Shown here piece after piece: positions 1,251 through 53,368 of a stretch of DNA of 64,000 bases. The notes below the pieces were generated by a model. The model was not told where the DNA came from and ran no database searches. It saw nothing but the letters and a program-made list of their open reading frames with translations. This stretch comes from Antedon mediterranea. Its lineage: Eukaryota > Animalia > Echinodermata. The translations under genes and the position numbers were made by a program. How positions within the stretch are numbered: position 1 is the stretch's first letter; every line of letters begins with the position of its first letter. The stretch spans positions 16,939,237 through 17,003,236 of the forward strand of contig NC_092672.1 in assembly GCF_964355755.1 (NCBI RefSeq), written 5' to 3'.

Positions 1251-2058
1251 TAGTCCAGTCAATCTATGACAAAAAAAGGCGTAACCCAAAACAAATTGCA
1301 ATAGTTTCCAAACCTTTTTTATTTGATTCTATAAGCATCTGGGAAGATCATTTCCAAAATCTACCAAAATCGGTTCAGTGGAACATACTTTTTAAGGGGT
1401 TTTAAGGTCATAGGGGTCAAATTACACATTTTTCTATTTGGAAAACTACTAGGCGTAGCATGTTAATTTTGGTGTCAAACTATTCAGAAGACCCATATTT
1501 ATATGTACTCTAATGAAACCTTTTTACCAAAAATTACAGGAAAGCATGTTTTTGACCTTTGACCTATTTTATTGTATATATTCGTATATTCGTATCTTAG
1601 TAACCAGTGGGCGTAGATGAGCGTTATTTGCGTCAAACTACTCATAAGGTCAATGTTTATATTAGTTCTAATGGAAAAGATTCGTGTAAAATGACCGGAA
1701 GTCATTATTTTGACCTTTGACACATATTCATTATTTTAGATTTCTCAGTAACTACATTTTTTATATCTCAGTAACCACTAAGCACAACTTCGTCAATTTT
1801 GTGTCAAAAGATTCAGAAGACTCATATTTATATTCACTATAGGCCTAATGAAAAAGTTTTTTTTAAAATGGATAGAAACTATGTTTTTGACCTTTGACCT
1901 ATTATACCAGTATATTTGTTTATATTTACTCTAATTAAAACAAATGCAAATGTACAATATAACCGAAAATCATTATTTTGACCGTTAACATTTTCTAGTC
2001 GTGTCATGAATAAATCTCGGGTCTCGAGTATAACATTTTAAATTTGACCAAATAATAA

Positions 2059-5000
2059 GTGCGGCGATCTGACAGACGTTGGGCTGGAATATCAACTGAT
2101 CTTGCCATAGAACAGTGTTTTATGCGTAGCATAAAAACAAGAGGAGGTCTAACAAGAGGGCGAGGATTAACAGAAATTCAACGACTTGTCTGGGTCCTTT
2201 CAACTCCAGTCTGCGCCAAGATCAATCATCCAATGCAAGAGTTCACTAACGTGTTGTATACTACCAGTGAACAACATAAAGAAACAACATATGCCAGAAA
2301 GATGAAGGACCTCAGTGATGTACAAGACATATCAAGGTATCTGACACAGCGAAATCCATTCAATACAGACAGTACAAAATCACTGACAAACATTGCAACT
2401 GGAGTGACGGCACATATCAATGTAGACTGTGACAATGCCAAGCATGTAGCAGGCCCGTAGCCAGGGGGGGGGGTTATGGTTCAGGCGAACCCCCCTTTAC
2501 AGCGACACCCCCCCCCCTTAACCGACTGCGAACCCCTATCCCCGACATCCACAATACCTCACCACACCCTCATCTCTGAAAATCCTCCAAATACAAAAGG
2601 TTGTTTGTAAATTGAAAAATTCGTGAATAACTCATACCTTATTGTTAAACAAATGAATTGGTTGCCGATTTTCACCTGAAAAATAATACGAATTTTTGGT
2701 TCCAGGATGTAACATGATATTGACGTATCATCATCATAGAGGATTATAGTGAATTTAATATACTAGATGGTACGCTCGCTTCGCTCGCGTACCATCTAGG
2801 TCGTGCCCACATATGGTTCTCGAATACATAGTAATTTCAGCGTAAAAAAACTGGCGATTTCAAAATGTAGGCCTACGTACCGCATGACTATAAAACATTT
2901 ATTTATGTATTTATGTAGTCAACCAAAATTAGCACCGTGCGAATTACTTCCAAAAGAGAAACTTCTCACAAAATGAGTCCAAATGTTTCATTTGGACTCA
3001 TTTAAACAAACCCAATTTGTATTTTGTATCTAACATTATTGAGGGTTGGGTTTTTTTTTTTAATAGGCCTATAAATAACACTAAATAGAGTAAAACATTT
3101 CCGATTTAATAACTGTTAAAATTGTCACTGTCATAGTCGATTGAAATAGTAAAGTACATGTAACGATACACCATCACGACGTTTATATTTTTTTGTAATT
3201 ATTAATTAATACAAACGTTGAGAAGCAACTATCAGTAATAAAGTATTATTATTATTATGTGTTTATAATCTAAAAGTAGGGGCTACCCACACTCACAGTA
3301 ATAAAGTTTATTAGTATATTTGTTTATATTATAATAAACAGTAGGCCTACCAACGCACACAATAAGAAATTTGCGATTCAAATGGCTATCAAAAGTGGTT
3401 AATACCTATTTACAGTATTGTATAGCTTTACAATACTATTTATGTTTATTCTCAAAGGGCCCATAAATTGACCTACTTGTGTTAAATCATGGAGGTATGC
3501 AAGCATGGTTAAACCAAATAATTTGGAATGTTCCATTCATCGCAAATCAATACATTTGTATAAACGTATATTAAATCTATCAAAATAGTATTTTTTAAAG
3601 AAAATCGGCCTGTCTTCAACATTATGATACTCTACTCGAGCTGTTCAACCGGTTTTCAGCTATTAAAAACAATTATCGTAGGAGGAGATAGGAAAATGCG
3701 AAGTATCCTCGTATTATTGTGTACAGGTATTTTTCATGAGGACATCCATTAGACAGTGTATACCACGATTGGAAAACACCCCTATTTGGGGCAAATGGTT
3801 GAACCTAAATTCGTTTTAATTGTCAATAACTAATTATCTAACTAAATTTAATTAGTAAACAGGGTTACATCAGGTGGTTAAAATCAGTACCGAGATTATA
3901 ACCAACTTTATATACCATCGAGTACACATTCTAGAAATACCGAATACCAATTGTTTATTCAAAGTCAAACTGTAACTAATCCCTCACTATTCAATCAAAA
4001 TGTTATTATACTACTATATTATTGAAAAATGGATTGCGTGACTTGAAAATAGATTGATATTAAAATGTAATAAAGACACGTTCTTGTCTGGTTATTAGGT
4101 ATGCATGCTCTGATAAAGCAGAGGATTATTTTTGTAGCGTTCCATTTAAAATAGATTTTATTACAAAGAAATATTTTGGTTGTGAAGGTCGTTTTAACAA
4201 TTAGGCTAATATCAAAACATTCAACAATGATAAAATGCCCTACAACTCTGTAACTACTTTATGACTAAGCCTATCAAGTTCCGTGTCCGGATGGTATACG
4301 ATGAAATGGAACTCAATTTCAAATTAGTGGCAGAAACAACATTTAGTATGAAATTAAGGCTGTTGCCCGGGCCACAAGGGAAACACAGTGACAGTGGGAC
4401 AGTGACCCAAATACTTAGTGTCCGAACCCCCCCCCCCTTGACAGATCCTGGCTACGGCCCTGTGTAGGTCAACAAATTGTGCAATCAATGACAAACCAAA
4501 AGGTCGCCGACTACACATTTCGGAAAAAGAGCCAATCCATTACAATGAACTCTAAAAGCGCATTGAAGATAAAAGATGATGTGGTCAATGTAGATCCTTT
4601 ACTTCTATTTCAACGACTTGTAACTGCCGGCACAAGATGCGATAATGTATCAGATATATTTAGATTGTTTGAATCACCAGATATGATGAGGTCTGCAAAT
4701 AAAGCTAGTTTAGCTGATAGTTTGTGGTCAACAGCAATCGAGGTTGCTCCAGAACCTCCTGATCAAATTCAGTACGTCTTAGATGGAGGAGCACTACTTC
4801 ATAACATTCCATGGACAAGAGGGGCTTCAGGGGTGACATTATGAGAGTATACACTAAATATGTTTCTCACAAATATGGAAAATCCATTGTTGTTTTTGAT
4901 GGGTACGATAACTCACTAAGTACAAAAGACTGTACACATACAAGGAGAAGTGGTGGTGGTGTTGTAGCTGTACACTTTGACCAATCTATGACCTTACAAA

Positions 5001-5962
5001 CCAAAAAAGAAGAATTTCTGTCAAACGTTCAAAACAAACAAAGATTCATTAAGATTTTGGGAAATAGTCTTGAAAAAGAAGGTTGTACTGTTCACCACGC
5101 AGAAGCTGACGCTGACTATCTTGTGTCGAAGATGGCTCTGTCCTACGCAGAACAAATAGGCACGGTTGTCATCGCAGATGATACAGATATCCTGGTCCTT
5201 CTTATCCACCATGGTGGTCACACCAAACATAATGTATGGTTCAAGCCAAACCAAAGGAAAGAAACTAAAAAGGTGCAACGATGTTGGAACATTGCGGCAA
5301 CAAGACTTGACCTTGGCAGCAATGTTTGTAAATATATCCTATTTTGTCACGCGTTCCTTGGATGTGACACGACATCGCGATTTTTTGGTATTGGGAAAAT
5401 CAAAGCAGTAACTAAAGTAAGAAGTGACTGTTTCTTTTCTGAACAAGCCAAAGTGTTTATGACTTGTAAGGAAAACAGACAGGAGGCAATTGCAGCGGGT
5501 AATAACGCCATTTTGTCTTTGTATGGTAGCAGCGATAATGAAAACCTAGATGAATTGAGGTTTCGTAAATTTCATGAAAAGACTACATGCAGTACTAAAG
5601 CAGTTCATCCACGTTCTTTACCCCCAACGGCATCAGCGGCAACGTATCATAGTCTAAGGGTGTACCAACAAGTTCAAGTTTGGCTTGGAAATGAAGAAAA
5701 TGTACCTCCAGATAAATATGGATGGAAGATCAGCCAAGGCAGGATGATACCATATTTGACGGACAACCCCCCAGCACCACAATTGCTCCTACAAATCATA
5801 AGATGCAAATGCAAAACAGGCTGCTAAAATATGAAATGCAGCTGTAGGAACAATGGATTAGATTGCTCCATGGCATGTAGTGAGTGTCGAGGTGTATGCG
5901 CAAACATTTCACTAGATGATAATGAATATACCGATTCTGAAGATTCAACAATGGGTTTGTAA
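2059..5962 (+). pseudogene. Academ transposase C-terminal part (TDLAIEQ..MRSIKTRGGL segment, XPG/FEN1-like PIN nuclease domain, C-terminal CXC/Cys-rich finger), disrupted
   Basis: Removing 2450-4462 plus one TSD joins ORF 2059 to ORF 4479 in frame (NAKHVGQQIVQSMT). Motifs VLDGGALLH, VVFDGY, HAEADAD, DDTDILVLL, HAFLGCDTTSRFFGIGK, LPPT, YGW. Frameshift near 4820-4840. In-frame TAA at 5825-5827 splits CKCKTGC*NMKCSCRNNGLDCSMACSECRGVC; natural stop at 5960-5962. The N-terminal transposase region is missing. Confidence 0.85.
2450..4462. mobile_element. Non-autonomous hAT-like element (5-bp TSD, hAT5-like) nested in the Academ ORF
   Basis: TIRs CAGGCCCGTAGCCAGG (2450) and CCTGGCTACGGCCCTG (ends 4462), 15/16 match; subterminal GAACCCCCC motifs; TSD TGTAG at 2445-2449 and 4463-4467; no transposase ORF inside. 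Confidence 0.8.
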
Positions 5963-7949
5963 AGTCAGACGATTGGTAAATATTCTCTACCAGGCCTATT
6001 TGGATATTTTTCTGTTTTGTGTGTTTTTAGAGTAAATATAAACAGAATAATGAATAGTTAAATGTTATCTTAGGTGCTGGTCTATGAAGAAATATAACAC
6101 CAATATATTGCCCCAATTACTAAACGTTTTCTGGATAGACATCAAAGGTAAAAATAATTACTTTCGCATTGACTATATACACAGACATTTTTTATTAGAG
6201 TGGATGTCCTTCTGAGTTGTTTGACACAAAAAATGCTCATCTAAACCCATAGTTCACAAAGATACAAATATATAAATATAATAGTTGAAAGCTTCCGGTC
6301 ATTTTCTGTAAAAATAGTTTCATTAGAGTAAATAAATATGGTTCTTCTGAATCGTTTAACACAAAAGTTACGCTTATTGGTCACCGAGATACAAAAAATA
6401 AATTTAGTGAGATATGAAATAAAGAATATATGTTAACGGTCGAAACGATGACTTTTTCATTAGAGTGAATATAAGCATAGACCTTTTGAATATTTTGACA
6501 CAAAAAATGCTCATCTACGCCCATTGGTTACAAAGATATGAATATACCAATATAATAGGTCAAAGGTCAAAAGAGTAGTTTCCGGTCATTTTTTGTAAAA
6601 AGTTTTATTATAGTGAATATAAATAAGGGTCTTCTGAATTGATTAACACAAAAATTACGAAGTTACGACTATTGGTCACCGAGATACAAAAAATTTAATT
6701 AGTAAAATAATATAAAATAATGAATATATCTCAAAGGTCAAAATGATGTCGTCTGGTCATAATACACAAAACGTTTTTATTAGAGTGAATATAAACATAG
6801 ACCTTCTGGGTATTTTGACACCAAAAACGCTTGTTTACGCCCAGTGGTTACCGAGATATGAATATGCCAAAATAATAGGTCAAAGGTCAAAAACATGGAT
6901 TCCGGTCATTTTTGATAAAAAAACTTTCATTAGAGTGAATATAAATATGGGTCTTCTGAATTGTTTGACACCAAAATTACCAAGTTCGGCCAAGCGGTTA
7001 CTGAGATATACAAATATATAATTTGACCCTCATGACCTCTTGACCCCTTAAAAAAGTATGTTCCACTGAACCGATTTTGGTAGATTTTGGAAATGTTTCT
7101 TCCAGGAACATATAGAATCAAATAAAAAAGGTTCGGAAACTATTGCAATTTGTTTTGGGTCTATCGGTAGATTGACTGGACTAATAGTAACTAGTTATCA
7201 TGTCAAAATATGAAAGGATCGACATTTGGCCATTTTTGGAAAATTTTCCTGCGGGGGACCACAGGAATTTTTTCAAAAAAATAACCAAAATGTCCACCTT
7301 TTAAAATTCAATAATTAGGCTATAATATTGCCATTTATGCACATATATTGTGTTAACATCATCTTATAGAGACATAGTAACGAGTTATGTCAAAAAATAA
7401 AAGGGTCGAAATTTGGCCATTTTTGCGAAAATTTCCCTGCGGGGGACCATAGAGATTTTTTCAAAAAATGGCGAAAATTTCAACTTTTTAAAATTCAATA
7501 ATTATTCCATTATATTGGCATATATGCAAATATATTGTGTTAGCATCATCTTATAGAGCCATCGTAACTAGTTATGTCAAAATATAAAAGGGTCAAAATT
7601 TAACAATTTATCGAAAATTTCGCTGCGGGGGACCATAAGAATTTTTCAAAAAATGGCCAAAATTTCCACTTTTTTAAATTCAGTAATTATGCTATAATAT
7701 TGCCATTTATTAACATATATTATGCTAACATCATCTTATAGAGATATCGCAACTAGTTATGTCAAAAAAATAAAAGGGTCGAAAAGTGGAAGCATTTTCC
7801 ACTTTTTAAAATTAAATAATTATGCTATAATATTGCCATTTATACAGATATATTTTGCTAGCATCATCTTATAAAACCATAGTAACGAATTATGTCCAAA
7901 AATAAAAGGGTTGAAATTTGGCCATTTTTCGAAAAATTTCTTTGCGGGG

Positions 7950-13350: not shown

Positions 13351-13425
<75 letters not shown>

Positions 13426-14793
13426 ATCTCTCTCTCGCTGATCTATCTCTCTCTCGCTGATCTATCTCTTTCTCGCTGATCTATCTCTCTCTCGCTGATC
13501 TATCTCTCTCTCGCTGATCTATCTCTCTTTCGCTGATCTATCTCTCTCTCTCGTTGATCTATCTCTCTCTCGCTGATCTATCTCTCTCTCTCGCTGATCT
13601 ATCTCTCTCTCGCTGATCTATCTATCTCTCTCTCTCGCTGGTCTATCTTTCTCTCGCTGATCTATCTATCTCTCTCGCTGATCTATCTCTCTATCGCTTA
13701 TCTATCTATCTCTCTCGCTGATCTATCTATCTCTCTCTCGCTGATCTATCTATCTCTCTCTCGCTGATCTATCTCTCTCTCGATGTTCTACCTATCTCTC
13801 TCTCGCTGATCTATCTCTCTCGCTGATCTATCTATCTCTCTCTGTCGCTGATCTATATGTCTCTCGCTGATCTATCTCTCTGTCGCTGTTCTATCTCTCT
13901 ATCGCTGATCTCTCTCTCTCTCGCTGATCTATCTCTCTCTCGCTGATCTATCTCTCTCTCGCTGATCTATCTCTCTCTCGCTGATCTATCTCTCTCTCGC
14001 ATATCTATCTCTCTCTCGTTGATCTATCTCTCTCGCTGATCTATCTCTCTCTCTCTCTCGCTGATCTATCTATCTCTCGCTGATCTATCTATCTCTCTCT
14101 CGCTGATCTATCTTTCTCTCGCTGATCTATCTCTCTCTCGCTGATCTATCTCTCTCTCGCTGATCTATCTCTCTCTCGCTGATCTATCTCTCTCTCGCTG
14201 ATCTATCTCTCTCTCGCTGATCTATCTCTCTCGCTGATCTATGTATCTCTCTGTCGCTGATCTATCTATCTCTCTCTCGCTGATCTATCTCTCTCTCGCT
14301 GATCTATCTGTCTCTCGCTGATCTATCTCTCTCTCGCTGATCTATCTATCTCTCTCTCGCTGATCTATCTTTCTCTCGCTGATCTATCTATCTCTCTCGC
14401 TGATCTATCTCTCTCTCGCTGATCTATCTATCTCTCTCGCTGATCTATCTATCTCTCTCTCGCTGATCTATCTATCTCTCTCTCGCTGATCTATCTCTCT
14501 CTCGATGTTCTATATATCTCTCTCTCGCTGATCTATCTCTCTCGCTGATCTATCTATCTCTCTCTCGCTGATCTATATCTCTCTCGCTGATCTATCTCTC
14601 TCGCTGATCTATTTCTCTGTCGCTGATCTCTCTATCTGTCGCTGATCTATCTCTCTCTCGCTGATCTATCTCTCTCTCGCTGATCTATCTCTCTCTCGCT
14701 GATCTATCTCTCTCGCTGATCTATCTCACTCTAGCTGATCTATCTCTTTCTCGCTGATCTATCTCTTTCTCGCTGATTTATCTCTCTCTCGCT

Positions 14794-14851
<58 letters not shown>

Positions 14852-16113
14852 GCTGATCTATCTCTCTCTCGCTGATCTATCTCTTTCTCGCTGATCTATC
14901 TCTCTCTCGCTGATCTATCTCTCTCTCGCTGATCTATCTCTCTCTCGCTGATCTATCTATCTCTCTCGTTGATCTATCTCTCTCTCACTGATCTATCTCT
15001 CTCTCTCTCTGATCTATCTCTCTCTCGCTGATCTATCTATCTCTCTCTCGCTGGTCTATCTTTCTCTCGCTGATCTATCTATCTCTCTCGCTGATCTATC
15101 TCTCTATCGCTTATCTATCTATCTCTCTCGCTGATCTATCTATCTCTCTCTCGCTGATCTATCTATCTCTCTCTCGCTGATCTATCTCTCTCTCGATGTT
15201 CTACCTATCTCTCTCTCGCTGATCTATCTCTCTCGCTGATCTATCTATCTCTCTCTGTCGCTGATCTATATCTCTCTCGCTGATCTATCTCTCTGTCGCT
15301 GTTCTATCTCTCTATCGCTGATTTCTCTCTCTCTCGCTGATCTATCTCTCTCTCGCTGATCTATCTCTCTCTCTCTCTCGCTGATCTATCTATCTCTCGC
15401 TGATCTATCTATCTCTCTCTCGCTGATCTATCTTTCTCTCGCTGATCTATCTCTCTCTCGCTGATCTATCTCTCTCTCGCTGATCTATCTCTCTCTCGCT
15501 GATCTATCTCTCTCTCGCTGATCTATCTCTCTCTCGCTGATCTATCTCTCTCGCTGATCTATGTATCTCTCTGTCGCTGATCTATCTATCTCTCTCTCGC
15601 TGATCTATCTCTCTCTCGCTGATCTATCTGTCTCTCGCTGATCTATCTCTCTCTCGCTGATCTATCTATCTCTCTCTCGCTGATCTATCTTTCTCTCGCT
15701 GATCTATCTATCTCTCTCGCTGATCTATCTCTCTCTCGCTGATCTATCTATCTCTCTCGCTGATCTATCTATCTCTCTCTCGCTGATCTATCTATCTCTC
15801 TCTCGCTGATCTATCTCTCTCTCGATGTTCTATATATCTCTCTCTCGCTGATCTATCTCTCTCGCTGATCTATCTATCTCTCTCTCGCTGATCTATATCT
15901 CTCTCGCTGATCTATCTCTCTCGCTGATCTATTTCTCTGTCGCTGATCTCTCTATCTGTCGCTGATCTATCTCTCTCTCGCTGATCTATCTCTCTCTCGC
16001 TGATCTATCTCTCTCTCGCTGATCTATCTCTCTCGCTGATCTATCTCACTCTAGCTGATCTATCTCTTTCTCGCTGATCTATCTCTTTCTCGCTGATTTA
16101 TCTCTCTCTCGCT

Positions 16114-17941: not shown

Positions 17942-18229
17942 GCTGATCTATCTCTCTCTCGCTGATCTATCTCTTTCTCGCTGATCTATCTCTCTCTCGC
18001 TGATCTATCTCTCTCTCGCTGATCTATCTCTCTCTCGCTGATCTATCTCTCTCTCTCGTTGATCTATCTCTCTCTCGCTGATCTATCTCTCTCTCTCGCT
18101 GATCTATCTTTCTTTCGCTGATCTATCTATCTCTCTCTCTCGCTGGTCTATCTTTCTCTCGCTGATCTATCTATCTCTCTCGCTGATCTATCTCTCTATC
18201 GCTTATTTATCTATCTCTCTCGCTGATCT
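11835..18229. repeat. Minisatellite B array, unit ~17-23 bp CGCTGAT(CTAT)1-2(CT)n, with pure (CT)n tracts
   Basis: Directly visible tandem repeat; lines 14041-14760 recur at 15361-16080 (1320-bp higher-order period). Confidence 0.97.
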
Positions 18230-18266
18230 CACGGCAGTTTCAAACGCGATATCCGAGACACAAAGT
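18230..18266 (+). other. Left end: RSS-like signal, heptamer CACGGCA + 21-bp spacer + nonamer-like ACACAAAGT
   Basis: Heptamer 18230-18236, spacer 18237-18257, nonamer 18258-18266. The block CGAGACACAAAGTG matches the right-end block CGAGACAAAAAGTG but lies 9 bp further from the terminus. Confidence 0.75.
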
Positions 18267-18890
18267 GTTTACAACGCGCTTTTGATTGATACGCCTGGCG
18301 CGAGCCTTGAGCAGCTATTTATAGCCCACCAACATCGAGCGAAATGTTTACATTAGCTAGCTATAAACAGAGAGTGTATCATACGAAGTAAATACAGTCT
18401 TACAATGACAAATTAATAAAGTTTTCCTCGAATCTTACAGTGTTTGCTTTATTATTGTATTTTGTATTAGGGAAAATTGTCTAGGATTAAAAAATATTAT
18501 TAAAAAAGCGAAATTTTAACGATGTTTGCGATAGTTTCAAAAGCTGAAAATATACATAAATAGCGCCCTCACGGCGAAAGTTTATCGTCGCGGTAAGTTC
18601 AAGCTTTTGATCGTCTGATAGCAAATCTCTGCAATTTTTTCGAGCAACACCGTTAATTCCAAGAGAAAGCGGAGACTTTATTCTTTATTTAGCTCAAAAT
18701 TCAGGCTGACGTCTACTTTCAAATTGATTTGAGCTAAATTTGAAATTGACTTATTTCTGTTCAAAATTCCAGTGATTTTATAGGTAAAAATAGGCCTAGG
18801 GCAAAGTTAATTATATATTTTTTAAAGAATTGTGTATTGGTTTTGCATTGACTGTATGTGGTATGTTACTGTTATTTATTGTCTTGTGAA

Positions 18891-21800
18891 ATGGAGTACC
18901 ATACATATGCATTGAGTAATTTATGTCGTGTATGTGGTGTCAAGTTAACACGAAATCAGCGAAAATTTGACCTAACTAAAGTAAAAGATAGCGTCCTGAC
19001 ATTTTTAAATATCGATTTAACCCATGAAAACAAAGATGTACATCCACCATTCATTTGCAAGAACTGTCAATTTTCAAGCTATAACAAGGTTAGCACAACT
19101 CAAAGGTACATCTGGAGACAACACACACAACAATCATGTTTCACATGTTATTTATTATCAGAACAGTCAAAACCAGGTAAGAGACTAAAACAAGTAAAAC
19201 TCAACACATTATTTTCTGAAACAGAATGTGACGTTATTCCATCAAAATTTACAGTCAATGACAAAATCAATTCTGAACCTTTCATTTGCCAAATATGCAA
19301 CTCGATTTTGTCTTTCAACAGTCTTGAGTCAAACTGTTCACATCACTATTGTTCTAGTTGTATGTATAATTTGTTTAGTACCCTCCATGTTAACGTATGT
19401 TCATGTCTTGTGTGCGCAAAGCCAATGCACATGCTGGAATTTAAACCCGCCTCCCAAATTGTAATAGAGTCTCTAAAATCACTAGAATTACAATGCTCGT
19501 GCAATAAGTTCATAAAATACTCTCAACATCAGAGACATATTTGTGAACACCAGACAACTAAAGAAGTGGTTTATCATAATGTTTCAAAAGCTGTATCAGT
19601 GTTAGAGAAATCACTAGAAGATAGTCATGTCTCCCAAACAATACAAACGTTTGCAGAAAAAGTTGTTTACAATCAACTAAAGAAAAGTAAGGAAATGCTG
19701 ATTGCAACAAATGGTCGGGTGAGTGCTTTAAAACAAATTCTGTAATTATCATATTGCATGTTATAAAAAGTAGATTAATATTATTATAACAGAATTGTTA
19801 GCATAAAACATACAAATACAATTCTTATCTACAGCCAGCAAAGATTGCTATCATACCAAACACCAAAGTCTCAAGTGATAAGGCCAGTTCTCGAACTGTT
19901 TCAAGACGAGCAAATAGCATCAGCAGCATCATAAAATCAGTTGGCAATAGTGAGGCTGGTGATTTCCATCAAAAAGTGTACTCAGCCAAACATATGAGTC
20001 AAGCGGTCTTAAAAGCAGCCAACATAGCATCAACTTCGTCTATAGATACAGATAAGGCTCTGGCAATGGTGTCAGACTGCCATCTGGCATGGAACCAGCT
20101 ACGAAAGCTAAGAAGGTAAACAAACAATTATGTGATTAAATAAAACCATGCATGAATACAGGCATTTTAGACACAGTCAAGTATGTCTAGTAATAAAGCG
20201 AGACTACATTATTAATCCTTTTTATGTACTAGATATGTGGAGAAGGGGACAATACCATCAGAGAAAAGGATGCGGCAGCGGCAAAATGATCTCATTGGGG
20301 ATTATTTTGAATCCACAATGGAAATGCTATGTTTTAGGTCTGAGACGTCCCCAGACGGGATAGAATTAAGATCAACGCCTACTGTCAAACTGAAAAACAT
20401 TAAAAAAGTTGTATTTTCATATCTTGATGAACACTCAAGGTACGCTGAAGTTAAATTTTAATATGTGCTTACAAAGTGTAGAACTTACTTTTTAGGACTT
20501 TACTTTTGTTCCTATGGATTTGCTATGGAAATAAAAGTTAAAAGAAATTAATTAAAAACTGAATTAATATTTACTAAATTTTTTTACAGACTGAACAACC
20601 TATCTCCCAATAATAACGAGATTTGGATAAAGTTTGGCGGGGATAAGGGAGGTGGAAGTACCAAATTTGAGGTACAGATATGTAGCCTCGCCAAACCAAA
20701 TTCAATTAACAACATCATCGTCGTACTAATATTTGATGCCCCTGACATGATGTTTAATATTAACCGGACTCTTCCGGAAGTGGCCCACCAAGTTGTTGCT
20801 TTGAACGGGGAAAAATGGCGGTAAGAATACAACTAGTATATCAACTTAATTATGTGGATGCGTATACAAGTAATAAAATAAAAATATATGTATAATTTCT
20901 TTCAGCAATTACACACTGAGAGTTTTCTGTTTTGGGGACTATGAGTATCTAACAAAACTCTATGGATTAAATGGACCAAATGGTAAACTATTAAATTATT
21001 TTATCATCATTTAATTTATACAAAATCTTTCTAAGCCAATTTTATTTATACTGTATTACTGCATATTTTAGCATTTTTAAACATTGTGAAAAAATTGGAA
21101 TACTTTTAGCTCGATACTGCTGTCTCTTTTGTGAAAAACCAAAAGCAGAAATGCAATTAAAGGCACCACCCGCCAAACAGCGATCATTGGCTTCAATCAG
21201 AGCCAACTATAGAATGTTTATGGAAGATGGCGGAATTGAAAGCCGATCTAAGGATGTTTCCATGAGCGTTGTTAATAATCCCTTAGTATCAATTGAGGTA
21301 GATCATGTAAGTACATCAGTTTTGTTTTTAATTATCTTTATATTAGAGAAACAAATGTACTTACTTCATTATATGGCACTGTTGGTATTAAAATTTATAT
21401 CTTTTAGGTGTCTGTTCCTAGCCTGCACTTGTCATTGGGCATATTCAAGAAGCTCTTTGATATGCTTGAGACGGAGGCGCACAGCATAGATTGCCTCATA
21501 TATTCCCTAAGGAAAAATGGAGAACTTGATGACACTTCTGAATCAAAGTTTGATAAAATAATTCAACATCAGATCCAAACACAAATTGATATCAAAGAAA
21601 AGATTGAAGAAAAGAAATTAAAGTTGACTGAGATGGAGGATGCAATGCCATTAATCTATCTTAAAGGAAGTGTTGATGGTAGCATCATTACCAATGTGGG
21701 AAAGATAGTCAGATTGAGAGAAGAGATTGAGTCACTGGTAAGTTACTCAAACAATAAATGACATAGATGCGTCTTGCCAGACACATACTCTAAAGACAAA

Positions 21801-22771
21801 ACTTGTATTATATTTTATTTTACAGACAAAATGCATGGAAAATGGGCTTCCATTTGGAACGGGTCCAATTGTCACATCACTGGAGCGTGTGCTACAAAAA
21901 AATCGCATCCAACGGCAAGCCTATCATGGTAAATCATTTATTGGTAACCATGTTCATAAATGTTGTCAGGTAAATTAACTATTCTTTTAATTGATATTGT
22001 TTCAACTGTTAATTATTAAAATTGTAGTTTTTAAAATGTATATTTGTTTTTAATAGGACCATGTTAGGAATGAACTAGTGAATGCTCCACTACATGAAAT
22101 GAAAATTCAAGAAGCTGAGATTCCTATCGGAAAAATTCAGCTAATTGACAAAAGAGTAAAAGAATTGGTCACCAAGTACGATGCACTCCTTTCAAAATTT
22201 TCTAGGGTTCACAATAACTTGAATCATTCAAAACCTGTCACAGATGTTGATATTCAAGGAAATGGTAATGTAATTATGCTTACCTTTCAAGGTATTCCTT
22301 AGACATGCCATTGTTTCTTTTCCTACAACACACTGCAACTGTTTCTTTTCTCTTCTACAAAAAAAATTCAGATAAAGCCATAAAAGACTTTATGGAGGAA
22401 TATCGAAAAACCAACAAAAGTATATCTCCAAAATTACATATGCTCGAGGAACATGTCATTCCCCAATTAAAGGCTTGGAGATTTGGTCTGGGACTGGTTA
22501 GCGAGCAAGGTGGGGAGTCTATTCACGCCGCGCTTAATAAAAGGAAAAGAACAGTTGCTGGGATGCATGACAGACTTGGACAGTTAACATCCATGATGCG
22601 GTCACATGCAATTACCACTCAGCCATGCATAATAGAAGAAATAGTTGAACCCAAAAGAAGAAAAATTGGTAACAATTTACACTTTATTGATTACACTATT
22701 TGTGCTTTTTAGCTCCCTGCTCACCAAAAATTAAATAAACCTGTTTATATTTTTCAGAAAAAGAAGAATAA
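18891..22771 (+). CDS. RAG1-like DDE transposase (Chapaev-type), 11 exons, ~937 aa, no frameshift or premature stop in the manual splice model
   Basis: Exons, all with GT-AG introns and consistent phases: 18891-19718, 19835-20115, 20233-20439, 20590-20820, 20906-20982, 21110-21306, 21408-21737, 21826-21969, 22057-22264, 22372-22668, 22758-22771 (2814 nt including TAA; the last micro-exon is least certain, alternative stop at 22712). Motifs: H-x7-CRVCG...HPPFICKNC...W..H....CFTC (Chapa finger), RING CQIC..CSHHYCSSC..CLVC, ZFA-like CSC..HQRH, NGRP, ALAMVSDCHLAWNQLRKLRR, WIKFGGDKGGG (first D), FGDYEYLTKLYGL (second D), YCCLFC, PSLHLSLG, FIGNH, KLHMLEEH, GLVSEQGGESIH (E), basic tail PKRRK. Confidence 0.88.
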
Positions 22772-23917
22772 AGTACACGACAATGAATACGAAATAAAAG
22801 AAAATATAGGCTTACTGATAAATCTGACGGAGTGCCATCTTCTTCTTTATTATGGATTCTCTTATGAACCACACTTGCATCAATAAAGTAGTCGTACTTG
22901 TTTGTGTTGGTGGTATTTTTGGAACCTGTAGTACAATTTTTGAATTATAAATATTTATCATCATTATTTAAAAAAATGGTGGACTAGCGATTGAAATACA
23001 TGATGAAATATTATATTATAATTAGGACTATACTGTCAAAATTAAAATCAAAATTTTATTTTTTATTCTACAAATGCAATGCTGTTGCTGCCATAGTTTA
23101 GTAATATTCAAGCCATAGGAAGATAGACTATGATATTTTCACATTTTCTACTGTAGAATAAATTAGGCCCTCATGAAAGCTAGTTAGTAAGTATACCTAT
23201 CCTCCTAGGCCTACCTATGTCTTGATGGTACCATATTAAAAAATTAGGCCTAGCCTAGCTAGATAGAGCTGTTACTAAAGCCTGGCCCTGCTGATTTCCC
23301 CTCTTAACGACATATACTTGGGCTAGGCCTACTAAGAGTATATTATTCTAGGCCTAGGCCTATACAGTATTTATTTTTCGTGGCTTAAACCTAGTACTAG
23401 GTGACAAACCTTTGTTAGGCCTAGGCCTTTAGCAGCACACCCACGTGTGCAAAACAGGCAAATGGGCCCCGACTTTCTGTGTATATAATTATTAAACTGG
23501 ATTAGACGTCAGCGAGATTTTTTAAATATTGTTTATCAAGTTTTTGAATTTTCACATCGACTAGGCGCCGATGTTTATGTAAATTGCAAAAAAAATATAT
23601 AACCTCACCATTACCCTGTAATTAAACTGCTATTTTTTACTGTTTTTTGTCGCAAAATAGACGTAAGATTTCAATACTCATATCTCGTGAAGTCTTGAGA
23701 AACGGAGTGACCGCTGGCTTCGAATATCAATTACACGCCTTCTTCTTCGAATATAACATGAATATTCATTAAATTTTCAATTATAACACTGTCTATTGGT
23801 CAGTTTATTCCCTCTCTTTTACCAGGGTAGTAAAAATAGTCTTCCGGGTATTTAAACTAGCGCCCTCTATAACATAAAATAAGAAAAAGCGAGCATCGAA
23901 ACTATAGAGGGCTCACC

Positions 23918-23945
23918 ACTTTTTGTCTCGCTGGAAACTGCCGTG
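23918..23945 (-). other. Right end: RSS-like signal, heptamer CACGGCA + 12-bp spacer + nonamer-like ACAAAAAGT
   Basis: On the minus strand: CACGGCA (23945-23939), GTTTCCAGCGAG (12 bp, 23938-23927), ACAAAAAGT (23926-23918); 7/9 identical to the RSS nonamer ACAAAAACC. Confidence 0.8.
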
Positions 23946-35384
<11,439 letters not shown>

Positions 35385-41719: not shown

Positions 41720-43867
41720 TGTTGAACCCACAAATGTGAAAACGCCAACAAATGTGAAAACAACCACAGATGTGAAAACGCATCACCCACAAATGTGAAA
41801 ACAATCACAAATGTGAAAACGCATCACCTACCACAACCACAAATGTGAAAACGCATCAACCACAAATGTGAAAACAGCGCCCACAAATGTGAAAATGATC
41901 ATCGCCCACAAATGTGATAACGCCCACAAATGTAAAAACAAGAGAGACTTTTTCGCCCACAAATGTAAAAAAATTCAGATCAAATTTAATGCTAGATTCA
42001 GACAAACATTATATCATGATTGTATTGAGTTGTTTGTTCACGATACGTCTGTTAGGGTCGTCGTTAACACGTTGGATTATTATCATTTGCTGCTCGTGCG
42101 CGCGATTTTTGCACGTTAACTCGTTTGTTTAATGAACGTAATAGTTCAAGACGATATTTGTTATTTGCTGCGCGCGTGCACGATACTTCAAGGTCAAGGC
42201 CATGTTATATCATTGTTGCTTCTACTGTGTCGTTGTTGGCTTACTATTATGTACGTATAGTTATAAGTCGATGTTCGATATTTTTTTTTTGCGCGCACAC
42301 GATACAACAAGGTCAAGGTTAAATTGCTACTTGTATGTAGTGTGTGGTTATTAACTCGTTGGCTTACTGTTATGTACGTATAGTTCAAGTCGATGTTCGA
42401 TTCGATGTTTTTGTGCACGTACACGATACCACAAGGTCAAGGTCATATATAATATTGCTACTTGTGGTTGTTAACTCGTTGGCTTATTGTTATGTACGTA
42501 TAGTTCCAAGTCGATGGTCGATTCGATTTTTTTTTTGTGCGCGTGCACGATACTACAAGGTCATATATCATTGCTGCTTGAAGTGCAGTTGGGCTTACTA
42601 TATTAGTATTATGTACGTATTATAGCTCCAAGTCGATGCTCGGTGTACACGATACTACAAGATCAATGCTATACTCGTCGTTCAGTTATTGCAGTAGTTC
42701 CTAATGTTCAATTTTTTTACAAAACTATAACCACAAGATAATAATACAAGAGCTAGAGCAAGACCAACTAATACAAGAATATTTCTTTATTTTAGAGCGA
42801 TAAACAAATTGTAACATAGAATAATACCGTAACACCAATATCCAACCAAACATAATACACGATACGATAGCATCAAACTTGTCACGAACATGTATTCTAT
42901 AAAACATACTATGAAATCTATAACAATTATACTAATGGACAAAACTTCCTACTATACTACTATTTACATTCGTGGTTTAATCTGATGCTTATTGTTTAAT
43001 TTGTATATCTATTTTTAGCGGATAATTATAAAGATATACGGAGAATAATATTACCTATTGAATGCATTAAAATTTAACTGATTTACTATCAAACGTATAT
43101 TCGACAATTTAAAGAAATAGAATTAATTAGCAATAGTATATATGACCTTGATCTTGTGGTATCGTGTACGTGCACAAAAACATCGAATCGAACATCGACT
43201 TGAACTATACGTACATAACAGTAAGCCAACGAGTTAATAACCACACACTACATACAAGTAGCAATTTAACCTTGACCTTGTTGTATCGTGTGCACGCTCA
43301 AAAAAACATCGAACATCGACTTATAACTATACGTACATAATAGTAAGCCAACAACCACACAGTAGAAGCAACAATGATATAACATGGCCTTGACCTTTAA
43401 GTATCGTGCACGCGCGCAGCAAATAAAAAATATCGTCTTGAACTATTACGTTCATTAAACAAACGAGTTAACGTGCAAATATTGCGCGCATGAGCAGCAA
43501 ATTATAATAATCCAATGCGTTAACCACGACCCTAACAGACGTATCGTTAACAAACAATTATTGAAACAACTCAATACAATCATGATATAATGTAGTACCT
43601 CGATCAAAATTGTTTGAGTCTACCATTAAATTTGATCTGATTTTTTTTTTTACATTTGTGGCCGAAAAATTCTCATTTTTTTTTACATTTGTGGGCGTTA
43701 TCACATTTGTGGGCGATGATCGTTTTCACATTTGTGGGCGCTGTTTATTACATTTGTGGTTGATTCGTTTTCACATTTGTGGTTGTTTTCACATTTGTGG
43801 GTGATGCGTTTTCACATTTGTGGTTGTTTTCACATTTGTGGGCGTTTTTACATTTGTGGGTTCAACA
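41720..43867. mobile_element. Non-autonomous Ginger-like (Ginger2/TDD-type) foldback element
   Basis: Termini TGTTGAACCCACAAATGT / ACATTTGTGGGTTCAACA; 5-bp TSD GGGGA (41715-41719 / 43868-43872); ~730-bp TIRs (41720-~42450 vs ~43140-43867) with about ten tandem CCACAAATGTGAAAAC units at each end; no integrase ORF. Superfamily inferred from TGT..ACA ends and TSD length only. Confidence 0.7.
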
Positions 43868-46743: not shown

Positions 46744-48565
46744 CTCTCTCTAGCTGATCTATCTCTCTCTCTCGCTGATCTATCTCTCTCTCTCGCTGAT
46801 CTATCTCTCTCTCGCTGATCTATCTCTCTCTCGCTGATCTATCTCTCTCTCGCTGATCTATCTCTCTCTCGCTGATCTATCTCTCTCTCGCTGATCTATC
46901 TCTCTCTCTCGCTGACCTATCTCTCTCTCGCTGATCTATCTATCTCTCGCTGATCTATCTCTCTATCGCTGATCTATCTCTCTCGCTGATCTATCTCTCT
47001 CTCTTACTGATCTATCTCTCTCTCTCTCTCTCGCTGATCTATCTATCTCTCTCTCTCTCGCTGATCTATCTATCTCTCTCTCGCTGATCTATCTATCTCT
47101 CTCTCACTGATCTATCTCTCTCTCGCTGATCTATCTCTCTCTCTCGCTGATCTATCTCTCTCTCGCTGATCTATCTCTCTCTTGCTGATCTATCTATCTC
47201 TCGCTGATCTATCTCTCTCTCGCTGATCTATCTATCTCTCTCTCGCTGATCTATCTATCTCTCTCTCTCGCTGATCTATCTATCTCTCTCTGATCTATCT
47301 CTCTCTCTCGCTGATCTATCTATCTCTCTCTCGCTGATCTATCTATCTCTCTCTCGCTGATCTATCTATCTCTCTCGCTGATCTATCTATCTCTCTCTCG
47401 CTGATCTATCTATCTCTCTCTCTCGCTGATCTATCTCTCTCTCGCTGATCTATCTCTCTCTCCCTCGCTGATCTCTCTCTCTCTCGCTGATCTATCTCTC
47501 TCTCTCGCTGATCTATCTCTCTCGCTGATCTATCTCTCTCTCGCTGATCTATCTCTCTCTCTCACTGATCTATCTCTCTCTCCTTGATCTATCTCTCTCT
47601 CGCTGATCTATCTCTCTCTCTCTCGCTGATCTATCTCTCTCTCGCTGATCTATCTATCTCTCTCTCGCTGATCTATCTTTCTCTCGCTGATCTATCTATC
47701 TCTCTCGCTGATCTATCTCTCTATCGCTGATCTATCTATCTCTCTCGCTGATCTATCTATCTCTCTCTCGCTGATCTATCTATCTCTCTCTCGCTGATCT
47801 ATCTCTCTCTCGATGTTCTACCTATCTCTCTCTCGCTGATCTATCTCTCTCGCTGATCTATCTATCTCTCTCTGTCGCTGATCTATATCTCTCTCGCTGA
47901 TCTATCTCTCTCGCTGATCTATCTCTCTGTCGCGGTTCTATCTCTCTGTCGCTGGTCTCTCTCTCTCTCGCTGATCTATCTCTCTCTCGCTGATCTATCT
48001 CTCTCTCGCTGATCTATCTTTCTCTCGCTGATCTATCTCTCTCGATGATCTATCTCTCTCTCGCTGATCTATCTCACTCTCGCTGATCTATCTCTCTCTC
48101 GCTGATCTATCTCTCTCTCGCTGATCTATCTCTCTCTCGCTGATCTATCTCTCTCGCTGATCTATCTATCTGTCGCTGATCTATCTCTCTGTCACTGATT
48201 TCTCTCTCTCTCGCTGACCTATCTCTCTCGCGCTGATCTATCTCTCTCTCGCTGATCTATCTCTCTCTCGCTTATCTATCTCTCTCTCGCTGATCTATCC
48301 CTCTCTCGCTGATCTATCTCTCTCGCTGATCTATCTTTCTCTCGCTGATCTATCTCACTCTCGTTGATCTATCTCTCTCTCGCTGATCTATCTCTCTCTC
48401 GCTGATCTATCTCTTTCTCGCTGATCTATCTCTCTCTCGCTGATCTTTCTCTCTCTCTCTCTCTCTCTGATCTATCTCTCTCTCGCCGATCTATCTCTCT
48501 CTCCCTCGCTGATCTATCTCTCTCTCGCTGATCTATCTCTCTCTCGCTGATCTATCTGTCTCTTT
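46744..48565. repeat. Minisatellite B array
   Basis: Same unit; the junction with satellite A matches that at 11834/11835. Confidence 0.97.
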
Positions 48566-50873
48566 CACACTCGATTCACCAGGGACAAAAAATAGTGAGC
48601 CCTCTATCGGCAGCGAATCGTTTTTGCACACGAGACAGCGTGGACAATTACCCGGAAGCAACTTTGTTTTGAAAAGTAAATCTTAGGTTTGTGAAAACTG
48701 GCCAATTGGAACTTTTGGTTTTATTTACTAATGAATAATTTATGAAAACCTTTGACAAGGCATCTACGAACCACGTGATATTGTTTTTTAATCGACGAAC
48801 CCATTATATTTGTGTGAAACAAGGGTGAATTACACCGATGTTTTTTAAACAATTTTAGGATATTCGAATGTTAAAATTTCGTCTAATTTGTTGAGGCTGT
48901 AATAAAACAACGCAATTTTTTGAGAAGGTGGGTTTTATAGTTTCTGAATATTTGATTTTTCAATAGTAGTTAATAAAAAATCTCGTTGGGGTTATTTTTT
49001 TTGTTTTTTAATGGCTGCTTAAACATGTGCCTTCTTGGGTATTTCACTATTGAAAATGGTTGAAATGGTTGTAGCTAAAATCATTTTTTACGCCATAAGA
49101 TAAAAAATGTGGTTTTGTAAATTAATAAGGGCAACATATACTATATAAGAAAGCTGTTTTTTATCATAAAACTCTACAAAGCCTCTTTGTTTTATTTATA
49201 AATCAATATAGTCTAGGCCTGTAGTACAGTAGGAGAGCCAGGCTTTAGCCTATAATAGTGGGGTAGTGCGTGCATTATTGGCGCGTGTTCATTGTCGGGC
49301 GCGCATTGTTTATAGGCCTAAGAAAATAAGTAAAATATACAAATATAATTAAATAATGATTATTATTAATTGAATGTTGTTTTTTTTTTACAGACCACAG
49401 AGGATTGTTCTACATACTTCAATACAAATAGCATTAAATCAACAACAATTTCTTATGAGTCATATTAATTTACCTCTGGCATATAATGTGAAAAAACACT
49501 ATTAATACTGTAATAATGGATATCTATAGATGTATTGCCAAAACGACATTTTATTTTTTAAAAACTTTAACTTATCCTAATTTACTTATTTAAAGGTTCA
49601 AGTGGGAGTTGGTTGTTGTGCAGTAGTTTAATAAAGTTTAAATGTACATTTCAAATCGGCAAATAAATAATGGTAATAGGCCTACTACAGTAATAGAAAA
49701 TCTTTTGAAGATTAGGCTTAGTACAAAAGATGTTAGCTAATTTGATGTAGAAAACTTGTTGTCTAATTTTTAAGGTGAAATTTGTGATAATATTAAAAGT
49801 TAAAATGTTAATTGGTGTGTATTTGTATTTCATTTATTGCTCCATTATTATAATAAAAAGCAGGGAATCATGAAATTTCATTTTAGCTCCGATAAAAAGT
49901 AAACATTTTCAGCATATACTGTACTTAAATCAATCATATGTTAGTGACAGGTGACATTAAAAGATTTATTATGAGATTACTTGTAAGCCTACTAGTAGGT
50001 TTAGCTCTATTCATAAAAATAATGACATTATATACTGTACATTAATTAGCCTAGCTAGGCCTAACTAATTTACTGAATTTTCAGTATTTTACCAAGTCAA
50101 CCGTTCAGGCATGCAGATACAGTCCTCACTTCACACCAATCTTCATAATTTTAAGAAAAATGAAAGTTCAGCACTTTATTTTAAAATTTATAAGCCCATT
50201 TTATAAGATTCTGCATCATCCACTTAACAAGAACTAAAATCGAGAGCCCAGTGATAGAGCGCATCTTCCGACGTTCTCGTCGCCTAAGGAAACGAGTATT
50301 CCAGCCCTGCCGCGTCTTCCTAGGCCTACGCGCACCGCACTTTCGCTCAAAATACACTATCTTCAACTCCTTATAGAATTTGTTTGAAAAATAACTCCAA
50401 GCTTATATTTGGAAATCTTTGAAAATGCATATAAGACTATATTATAGCATTTTCAGAATTTCATTTAAAAATTGCAAATTAATGTTAGCTATTTTAACAG
50501 ATTAGTTAGTTTTCACTTTTTTGTTTTCGCCGTATGACTCACTTTGTTTACGTTTGCACTTGGCTTAGACGTTTATCTTACAATTCAAATCAATTAATCC
50601 ATAATCAACTAAAATTGCTATTGTTGTGGTTTTTGTTTAATATAAATTTTCTTAATAAACAGAAATAAATCAAACAACAATATAATTTAATATAAACCCG
50701 TTAAAAGGGAAATTTAGACAGCCTATAAAACACGGAAGTCCGAACTCGCGTCGCTCGAAATGCTCGGGAACTTTCTATTTATAGCCAATCGAAAAAGGCT
50801 CCGGCTAACTTAAACAATGAAAACGGCTCTCGGAACACTTAATGTCCCATTTTCGCTGTTTGACGTGGATGTG
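48566..50873 (-). mobile_element. Non-autonomous relative of the Chapaev/RAG1-like element, opposite orientation, with 12/21 RSS-like ends
   Basis: CAC (48566) ... GTG (50873); 4-bp TSD CTTT (48562-48565 / 50874-50877). Left end CACACTC-12bp-ACAAAAAAT-AGTGAGCCCTCTAT matches the right end of 18230-23945 (ACAAAAAGT-GGTGAGCCCTCTAT). Right end (minus) CACATCC-21bp-ACATTAAGT-GTT matches its left end (ACACAAAGT-GTT). No transposase ORF seen. Confidence 0.85.
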
Positions 50874-51435
50874 CTTTCTCGCTGATATATCTCTTTCTTG
50901 CTGATCTATCTCTCTCTCTCGCCGAGCTATCTCTCTCGCCGATCTATCTCTCTCTCGCTGATCTATCTCTCTGTCGCTGATCTATCTCTCTCTCGCTGAT
51001 CTATCTCTCTCTCGCTGATCTATCTATCTCTCTGTCGCTGATCTATATATCTGTCGCTGATCTATCTATCTCTCTGTCGCTGATCTATCTATCTCTCTCT
51101 CGCTGATCTATCTATCTCTCTCTCACTTATCTATCTATCTCTCTCTCTCGCTGATCTATCTATCTCTCTCTCGCTGATCTATCTATCTCTCTCTCGCTGA
51201 TATATCTATCTCTCTCTCGCTGATCTATCTATCTCTCTCTCGCTGATCTATCTATTTCTCTCTCGCTGATCTACCTATCTCTCTCTCGCTGATCTACCTA
51301 CCTCTCTCTCGCTGATCTATCTATCTCTCTCTCGCTGATCTATCTATCTCTCTCTCGCTGATTTATCTATCTCTCTCTCGCTGATCTATCTATCTCTCTC
51401 TCGCTGATCTATCTATCTCTCTCTCGCTGATCTAT
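50874..51435. repeat. Minisatellite B array
   Basis: Same unit between the two insertions. Confidence 0.95.
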
Positions 51436-53368
51436 ATAATAACAAGCCATGGGTCACGAAAGGCGTTAAATTACTGTTGTGTGAGAAACGTAAAGCCTTT
51501 AAGATGGGCGACTCTAATCGTATGAAAATATTGACTAGAGAGATTAAATCTGAAATAATGAAACAGAAGAACATTTATAGGAAAAAAGTTGAACATAACT
51601 TCAGGTCTAATAATATGAAACAAGTTTGGCAGGGTATTAAACTTATGAGTGGTTACACAAACGGTGGTAATACACCCACCTCGATTCCGAATGTTACTGT
51701 GCAATATGTTAATGAGTTAAATGAATTTTATAACCGTTTTAATGTTCATGATTTTAAAAAAGAAAGAGAGGCTCTATTTAGCTTGTGTCGGGTGACTGAA
51801 GATGATCCCAAATTTAGTATAAGCATTTCTGATGTACATAACGAATTCATGAAACTCAATTCATCGAAGGCTGCTGGGCCGGATAGAATCCCACCACGAG
51901 TACTTAAGATCTGCTCTCCTCACCTTGATGGTATATTTACATTTATTTTCAATATGTGTCTTTCTTATCATGCGTTTCCGGATATTTGGAAACTTTCATG
52001 CATAATACCGGTACCTAAGAAACCTAAGATTAACAGCATGAATGATTTGAGACCCGTTGCACTCACGTCTGTCGCGATGAAAATATTGGAACGTATTATT
52101 TTAAAAATTATGCAACCTTATGCTGCAAAAGTGTTAGACCCGTTGCAATTTGCTTACCGATCACTCCGTCGTACCAGTGATGCGATTTATTTTAAATTAA
52201 ATAAATTGTATTAACATCTAGATAATGTAAAGAAAGGCCACTCGGCACGTATTATGTATTTTGATTTTCAGTCTGCGTTTAATACCATACAACCCCATAT
52301 CTTAGCAGACAAAATGTTGAATATGGAGTTTCCCCGTCCGATTGTTCGTTTAGTTTTAAATTTCATTTGTGATAGAAAACAATTTGTTAATATTAATGGT
52401 GTTAAGTCAGAAATCGTAACCTCTGACACCGGTGTTCCTCAGGGTACTGTCAACGCACCTAAATTATATTCCTTGTATACGGCCGATTACAGATCTTTAA
52501 ATGATGAGCTTTGCCTCGTTGTTAAATTCGCTGATGACACTAGTACTATTGGTCTCATAGTTTCAAACAATGATGAAAATTATCGTAGCGAAATACAAAG
52601 ATTTGTTAAATTTTGTGACGATAATTATCTCCAAATAAATGCATAAAAAACAAAGGAGATGATCATTGATTTTAGGACTAAACATAAATTTAATTTTCAA
52701 CCAATCACTATCAAAGGTAACGGAATTGAAATTGTTGACCAGTACAAGTATCTAGGAATTGTTTTCAATGATAAACTGAGTTGGGGAGACTATATAGACT
52801 TCATCAGCAAAAAATTAAATCCCAGAATGTATTGTATGAGAACTTTATATAAATTTAACTCCTGTGATTTGATGTTACTTTCGTTCAATAGATCCGTTAT
52901 ATGTAGTGTTTGGACGTATTGCCTCTTCTGTTGGGCTGGTAATGTTACCGGAGGGAATAAAGGACGCCTTGAAACTTTCATCCGTCGGGCTGGTAAAATG
53001 ATTGGTCTGGAACTGCCTTCCTTTACCGATGTGCACCTAGAACACCTAAAGAAAGATTTCGAACGTATTGAGTCGGATGCCTCTCATCCTCTCCACAAAG
53101 TGATCATAGACCAACTTAATCCAAGTGGTAGATTGAGGCTCCTCAGTGTGAAAACAAATCGATTTGCTAAATCCTTTATTCCCTCCGGTATCATCCAGTA
53201 CAACAGGAAGTCAAGAAGATAATTTTATCTTGTAATTTTTTAGATGTTTTTATATGAATGGTTTTATGCTATATTTGTTTTTTATTGTGTTTTCTTTGTT
53301 ATTATGACGAGCAATGAATTTCCTTTTTGAGGATCAATAAAACTTATATTATCTTATCTTATCTTATC
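51436..53368 (+). mobile_element. 5'-truncated non-LTR retrotransposon (LINE; Rex1/Babar-like, CR1/L2 group)
   Basis: Starts abruptly at NNKPWVTK; RT coding region, short T-rich 3' UTR, AATAAA and a (TTATC)4 tail at 53349-53368. Confidence 0.85.
51438..53222 (+). pseudogene. LINE ORF2 reverse transcriptase, two in-frame nonsense codons
   Basis: ORFs 51477, 52254 and 52659 are in one frame, separated by TAA at 52212-52214 and 52644-52646. Motifs KAAGPD, IIPVPKK, DLRPVALTS, LDPLQFAYR, DFQSAFNTI, GVPQG, KFADD, KTKEMIIDFR, YKYLG. Confidence 0.9.

Follow-up and report, generated by a model that had tools for sequence, protein, structure and literature searches.

A gene-less Chapaev-type transposon of Antedon mediterranea with almost no terminal inverted repeat and internal blocks 12 and 21 bp inside its two terminal heptamers

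The window, a 64,000-nucleotide stretch of Antedon mediterranea DNA, carries two transposable elements with related ends, an autonomous Chapaev-type element with an intact transposase gene (E1) and a shorter, non-autonomous element (E2) that lies in the opposite orientation and splits a CT-rich satellite array (Table 1). The satellite type that hosts E2 also hosts E1 and a non-LTR retroelement, and two further elements with inverted repeats are present elsewhere in the window.

Table 1. Positions of the elements, their ends, and neighboring features in the window.
Feature	Position	Strand	Description
E1, autonomous Chapaev-type element	18230..23945	+	5716 bp, perfect 12-nt terminal inverted repeat (TIR)
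E1 likely target site duplication (TSD) of 4 bp, ATCT	18226..18229 and 23946..23949		inside ATCT-periodic satellite
E1 long (5′) end	18230..18266	+	heptamer, 21-nt spacer, block 18258-18266
E1 short (3′) end	23904..23945	-	heptamer, 12-nt spacer, block 23926-23918, extension as in E2
E1 transposase gene, intact	18891..22771	+	11 exons, GT-AG introns, open 937-aa frame
E2, non-autonomous element	48566..50873	opposite to E1	2308 bp, 31.5% GC, longest ORF 73 aa
E2 short end	48566..48607	+	heptamer 48566-48572, 12-nt spacer, block 48585-48593, 14-nt extension
E2 long end	50837..50873	-	heptamer 50873-50867, 21-nt spacer, block 50845-50837
E2 TSD, left copy, CTTT	48562..48565	+	
E2 TSD, right copy, CTTT	50874..50877	+	
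CT-rich satellite array	46744..51435	+	19/23-nt units, split by E2
Non-LTR retroelement-like reverse transcriptase	51435..53365		in-frame stops; third insertion in the same satellite
Element with long imperfect inverted repeats	1284..7160		340-aa stop-to-stop ORF at 4805-5827
Foldback-like element	41720..43867		arms of about 550 bp inverted at 94-97%, internal repeats of 18-41 nt; lies within a 186-bp satellite

Read inward from 48566, E2 begins with the heptamer CACACTC, followed by a spacer of 12 nt and ACAAAAAAT, and its right end, read on the minus strand from 50873, consists of CACATCC, 21 nt, and ACATTAAGT. These ends, both spacers, and a CTTT target site duplication had been proposed in the initial annotation, and a rereading of both strands, combined with a satellite junction test, bears them out. 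A perfect 4-mer is by itself weak evidence of a TSD in this setting, because 6930 of 30,810 satellite cut points (22.5%) have identical 4-mers on their left and right. The duplication is well supported because removal of one CTTT restores a 23-nt satellite unit that occurs 203 times in the window and a junction found 45 times, whereas keeping both copies gives a 27-nt unit that occurs six times and a junction found 0 times. The first 12 nt of the two ends are identical at 7 of 12 positions, and the terminal pair is absent from the 25 longest among 202 inverted pairs within E2, so a TIR finder would likely miss the element, as had been anticipated. With its TIR hardly present, E2 is placed in the clade through the homology of both its ends to those of E1. 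The interior has no coding similarity to E1 (best tblastx E 0.23), and this value and the short longest reading frame rule out E2 as the carrier of a coding remnant. E1 (18315-18326) and E2 (50775-50786) share an identical 12-mer whose core is TATA-like; it is found 86-88 nt from the long end of each element, in opposite orientations relative to the end.

Further copies of E2 are found in public sequence data. Five public runs contain E1 words, and contigs from four of these runs (X1-X4) were aligned to E2, with 226, 106, 89, and 12 aligned contigs per run and identities ranging from above 99% to under 90%. Among the rows listed, at least one contig (X3) has a loose end exactly at 48565, and at least one from X1, two from X3, and four from X4 have loose ends exactly at 50873, with differing flanks. 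Because of these exact run-off ends, the differing non-satellite flanks, and the wide span of identities, E2 can be regarded as a diversified multi-copy family, which upholds the earlier suggestion of a diversified family with non-autonomous members; E2 is a real non-autonomous, multi-copy Chapaev-type element. The four runs represent at most two samples, and X2-X4 may share their source with the window, so they show other copies of E2 and are not independent confirmation. Satellite targeting is not supported, as other E2 copies carry non-satellite flanks. One X2 contig, from a copy diverged by 8%, aligns gap-free over 50738-50873 and differs at 11 of 136 nt. The short-end block is absent in one X1 contig, and 63-66 nt that include the long-end block are skipped in single X2 and X4 contigs; these block-less copies may be decayed. 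No E2-family indel falls in a spacer among the 12 of 127 rows listed.

The autonomous element had been equated with 18891-22771, which is its coding span only; the element extends well beyond it on both sides (Table 1). The ATCT repeat is favored as the TSD of E1 by the same comparison of satellite units (23 vs. 27 nt), though the satellite itself is ATCT-periodic. The encoded transposase has a Chapa zinc finger and a C3HC4 RING, with the residues H-x7-CRVC, CxxC motifs, and C3HC4, followed by a DUF1280/RNase H core, C(2)C and HxLExH motifs, and EQGGE. A GRP motif lies at residue 275, at the junction of exons 1 and 2, ahead of a helical region resembling the nonamer-binding domain (NBD) of RAG1. 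By analogy, the core motifs would be catalytic. Pfam detected DUF1280 at E 8e-14, with RING and RAG1_imp_bd below the cut-off. The C-terminal 555 residues are identical at 552 positions to an annotated A. mediterranea protein, and relatives of the transposase occur in echinoderms, hemichordates, amphioxus, and cnidarians, with 2012 representatives reaching E 0.001. At least two other Chapaev-type transposases, P0011 and P0031, of 32-41% identity, are annotated in A. mediterranea. When E1 was searched for a RAG2-like gene, no other ORF reached 150 aa, an intron-split gene being possible in the flanks of 0.66 and 1.17 kb.

By domains, termini, TSD, and motifs, E1 appears to belong to the RING-bearing Chapaev subgroup, which the available text of PMC4411706 (Kapitonov & Koonin 2015) and PMC4079192 defines by the combination of a Chapa finger and a RING with CAC termini and a TSD of 4 bp; compared by eye, the named Chapaevs have the N-terminal motif pattern of E1. 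Chapaev-1/2_BF and Chapaev-1/2_NV, as the accessible part of PMC4411706 presents them, resemble E1 in having a Chapa finger and then a RING and CAC...GTG termini. Both E1 and E2 have the 5′-CAC ... GTG-3′ termini given as a Chapaev feature in the portions of PMC4079192 at hand. In the same partial sources, the RING subgroup has TSDs of 3-4 bp and C(2)C, LH, and H(4)H motifs, which E1 matches; the TSD of E2 is 4 bp. Departures from the described Chapaevs are the near absence of a TIR in E2 and a 5-bp TSD in one relative, L033. Assignment of E1 to Transib was ruled out by its 4-bp TSD (5 in Transib) and by the presence of Chapa and RING. Assignment to RAG or RAGL was ruled out by the lack of a RAG2-like ORF of the size searched for, the 4-bp TSD (5 in RAGL), and the lack of a RAG1 match for the core by phmmer against the PDB, RAGL cores having more than 30% identity.

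The transposase is nonetheless RAG1-like in profile and predicted structure. A profile of the transposase family matches residues 101-377 of mouse RAG1 at E 1e-27, with further collinear weak stretches at 448-490, 645-741, and 960-1004, of which 448-490 is an NBD-type match that is itself weak (best conditional E 0.019). A Foldseek search with a model of the core (pLDDT 87) returned RAG1 as the top matches, at E 1e-14 and a TM of about 0.6, followed by BbeRAG1L at 3e-11 and HzTransib at 4e-7 to 7e-5, so that by E-value HzTransib is more distant from the E1-type core than RAG1 is. In the structural alignments, the core and RAG1 are only 12-14% identical. Of 52 homologues, 31 carry a G[RKQ]P-type motif at the position that corresponds to the NBD. 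The full-length model of the homologue P0011 (pLDDT 89.5) shared about 710-745 aligned columns with RAG1 chains containing the NBD, compared with about 655-665 for chains without the domain, which fits an NBD-like region in the model and is not a domain-level match. E1 encodes an intact transposase with a RAG1-like predicted fold.

Comparison of the two elements in the window shows conserved blocks at equal distances across diverged spacers. The short ends of E1 and E2 agree at 8 of 9 block positions and at 13 of the 14 nt that follow (21/23 overall around the block), and the long ends agree at 7 of 9 block positions and 33 of 60 nt downstream, whereas the spacers are identical at only 6 of 12 (short) and 9 of 21 (long) positions. 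The earlier observation that CAC, block, and both spacer lengths are kept relative to E1 while the spacers diverge is thus confirmed. Because conservation runs beyond nine bases, the internal site is not just an RSS nonamer. Homology between the ends extends about 100 bp, and since it continues beyond the block, the equal spacers could be inherited; E2 is not the independent support for a 12/21 arrangement that it had been taken for. A search of the window with the two patterns that had been put forward recovered E1 and E2, and the short pattern also matched one unrelated site at 6615; an extended pattern had zero chance matches.

The spacing was therefore assessed in distant relatives, comprising 60 loci, 59 from a metagenome scan (of 161 candidates) and one from a genome scan (of 50). 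Termini were picked solely on their first 12 nt and had to lie outside the coding match and point inward. The 139,534 bases contained 18 of them, whereas shuffling gave a mean of 0.78; about one false terminus is expected among the 18. A block profile trained on the four window ends only was then free to choose a spacer of 6-35 nt. Spacers of 12 (six ends), 22 (two), and 23 (four) were chosen, placing 12 of 18 ends in an accepted set (12, 21-23) that was fixed after end spacings had already been seen; the published RSS classes of 12±1 and 23±1 give the same 12 matches. Permutation gave a null mean of 2.4, with 0 of 5000 permutations reaching 12, and once the DNA-related ends were reduced to a single representative for each group and side, 5 of 10 fell in the accepted set (P=0.003). 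The six misses (L001, L022, L027-7610, L060, L036 5′, and L048) had chosen spacers of 9, 28, 10, 32, 8, and 29, and two of them, L036 5′ and L048, fit 12 under a retrained profile that had included both ends. L012 (12) and L020 (23) were also gained with that profile; they belong to a set of 20 weaker rows, most of which are noise. As none of the 18 outside ends has 21, the long class there being 22-23, a fixed 12/21 rule does not hold. The argument from the E1/E2 pair is weaker than originally stated, yet a 12 / 21-23 layout across the clade is supported by these relatives, as is a constraint on the distance from the terminal CAC to the internal block.

L025 (1281) and L026 (1598), similar in other respects, have the same flank and the same terminus-like start but differ by 10 nt in the distance to an A-rich block (21 and 11 nt), and are perhaps not true ends. 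In 31 of the 60 loci, a search for the best inverted repeat gave mostly noise. A protein scan of viral contigs confirmed 0 of 40 candidates, two terminus-pattern scans of viral contigs yielded 12 loci and 1 locus, all of which lacked a transposase match and were treated as chance, and no match was found in phage records. Among prokaryote genomes, one of 50 candidates (L060) was retained; its long inverted repeats (1346/17699) enclose, at 8231-14978, a Chapa-RING transposase gene that is interrupted, together with a Gypsy-like pol, and, although filed under a Nitrospirales MAG, the contig is likely mis-binned animal DNA.

An RSS-type layout, with a heptamer, a distal block, and two spacer lengths that differ by about 10 bp, a different one at each end, is seen in all four both-ended elements, namely E1 (21/12), E2 (12/21), L033 (22/12), and L036 (12/23); L036 is the weakest, as it has no matching TSD and its two ends may stem from different copies. 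The short spacers are all 12 (7 ends), though their variable positions average only 24% identity. The side of the transposase gene that bears the short spacer varies between families, with the short end 3′ of the gene in E1, L032, L033, and relatives, and the long end 3′ in L016, L027, L036, L046, and L047. L033 (35-6200) is a complete relative with the 5-bp TSD AGTTG, compared with 4 bp in E1 and E2, and TSD length inside the clade may be variable, overlapping that of Transib and RAG. Reading the heptamer-spacer-nonamer layout as pattern-fitting on AT-rich DNA, with the TSD as a satellite artefact, would accommodate the frequency of TSD mimics in the satellite and the chance match at 6615, but it conflicts with the reconstructed satellite junction, the exact contig loose ends, the permutation tests, and the lack of chance matches to the extended pattern, and is very improbable.

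Conservation in the clade is broader than spacing. The 12-nt terminus CACRGCNGTTTC is kept, with 0 mismatches in E1 and with 3 and 4 at the two ends of E2, which makes E2 the outlier of the clade. In 15 of 15 aligned ends, CAC, TC at positions 11-12, and GA at the block start are invariant, the GA partly by construction of the alignment. Selection on CAC, spacing, and nonamer had been suggested, and the conserved CAC-to-block distance in distant relatives agrees with it; these are not the sole targets, since the 12-nt terminus and its TC are also kept. In the comparison of spacers with subterminal DNA that had been proposed, no spacer gap occurs in 17 of 17 pairwise end alignments and gaps occur in the next 60 nt in 14 of 17. 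The 17 pairs are non-independent and reflect about 10 events, of which about 2.7 would be expected in spacers (P near 0.07, a rough hand estimate), so that a depletion of indels in spacers is suggestive only.

The best explanation, to which we assign a probability of roughly two in three, is that E2 is a gene-less member of a Chapaev-type family whose ends place an A-rich block 12 vs. 21-23 bp past the heptamer and in which pairing of a short with a long end is a functional requirement or preference. The catalytic core would engage the terminal 12 nt and cut at CAC, and the internal G-A-(C/A)-A-N-N-(A/T)-A-G-T block would be a distal binding site, contacted by the helical region after the G[RKQ]P-type motif much as the RAG1 NBD binds the nonamer (10.1101/2023.08.20.553239, among the passages available). 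An offset of 9-11 bp, about one helical turn, would let the two blocks lie on the same side of the double helix, and a short end would pair with a long end as RAG pairs the 12 and 23 signals used in antibody gene assembly. In E2, positions 4-10 would have drifted while CAC, TC at 11-12, and the block distance were kept, and its mobilization would likely depend in trans on E1 or on a sister transposase.

It is also conceivable, though unlikely, that the transposase does bind the block at each end but that the length difference is merely inherited and tolerated, with no short/long requirement. The ends of E1 and E2 are homologous, long spacers vary from 21 to 23, and the strong 12-nt TIR in most of the clade could suffice. 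RAG1 without RAG2 shows no 12/23 preference in the accessible text of PMC8355894, RAG1 without RAG2 and RAGL-B are reported, in sources available in part, to rely on the terminal 15-17 bp, and E1 has no RAG2-like ORF of the size searched for. Mere inheritance fits poorly with two discrete spacer classes, with no intermediates, in confident ends of at least five DNA-unrelated groups, and with a short class that is 3′ in some families and 5′ in others, yet present once with one long end in each both-ended element.

The identity of the enzyme that moves E2 is a separate matter. It is quite possible, if somewhat short of an even chance, that E2, a member of the same clade, owes its movement not to E1 but to another transposase, one whose terminal specificity is relaxed. 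The termini of E2 differ from the one kept by E1 and most relatives, its interior has no coding similarity to E1, and P0011 and P0031 are annotated in the species; against a different mover, the two short-end blocks with their surroundings are nearly identical, and both elements have 4-bp TSDs and the 21-nt spacer that is absent from the outside loci. Because it concerns the partner only, this alternative is compatible with a functional short/long pairing.

Similar ends have been described in related systems. In the available text of PMC1131882, Transib5, Transib2_AG, and TransibN1-3_AG resemble E1 and E2 in their CAC terminus, A-rich block, and RSS12-/RSS23-like ends, and these 12/23 families, like the E1/E2 clade, include non-autonomous members and have no RAG2; Transib differs, in the partial sources, in its 5-bp TSDs and in lacking Chapa and RING. 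RAGL-A of Ptychodera flava, in the passages of Martin et al. 2023 (10.1101/2023.08.20.553239), and RAG1 with its RSSs share the heptamer, a spacer asymmetry of about 10 bp, and an AT-rich nonamer-like block. By the same excerpts, a stretch beside the heptamer is conserved (GTTTC here, TR2 in RAGL-A), and RAGL-A and RAG1 also have a GRP-type motif, an N-terminal Chapa/NZD plus RING, and the core fold. Unlike them, E1 has no visible RAG2-like gene, a 4-bp TSD, and a block ending in AGT rather than ACC. No paper was found that describes a heptamer-12/21-23-block asymmetry for Chapaev, the original 2007/2008 Repbase Reports and the Aplysia N-RAG-TP paper lying outside the coverage of the search and possibly already noting it, and none was found that treats Chapaev together with RAG1, heptamer, and nonamer; the available portion of bioRxiv 2026.01.24.700457 mentions Chapaev 19 times and TIR never.

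The origin of the 12/23 rule and the need for RAG2 are debated, and asymmetric ends have been reported for some Transib and RAGL elements; one review, as far as its accessible text goes, gives certain Transib families as the sole example of asymmetry beyond RAG, to which the available passages of a 2023 paper (10.1101/2023.08.20.553239) add RAGL transposons. A more far-reaching view, tentative and on balance doubtful, is that RING-bearing Chapaev transposases are living single-subunit counterparts of full-length RAG1, with Chapa finger, RING, nonamer-binding domain, and core, that enforce a 12/23-type rule without RAG2. If so, the rule would go back to an ancestor shared by Chapaev, Transib, and RAG, while E2 would show that it can outlast the TIR itself. 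Were this end geometry present in a third lineage, one that has the N-terminal RAG1 domains missing from Transib, the architecture would be pushed back. E1 would supply an intact single-protein enzyme, and the clade natural 12/21, 12/22, and 12/23 substrates, for a direct test, and elements such as E2, which would likely evade TIR finders, could be annotated by spacing.
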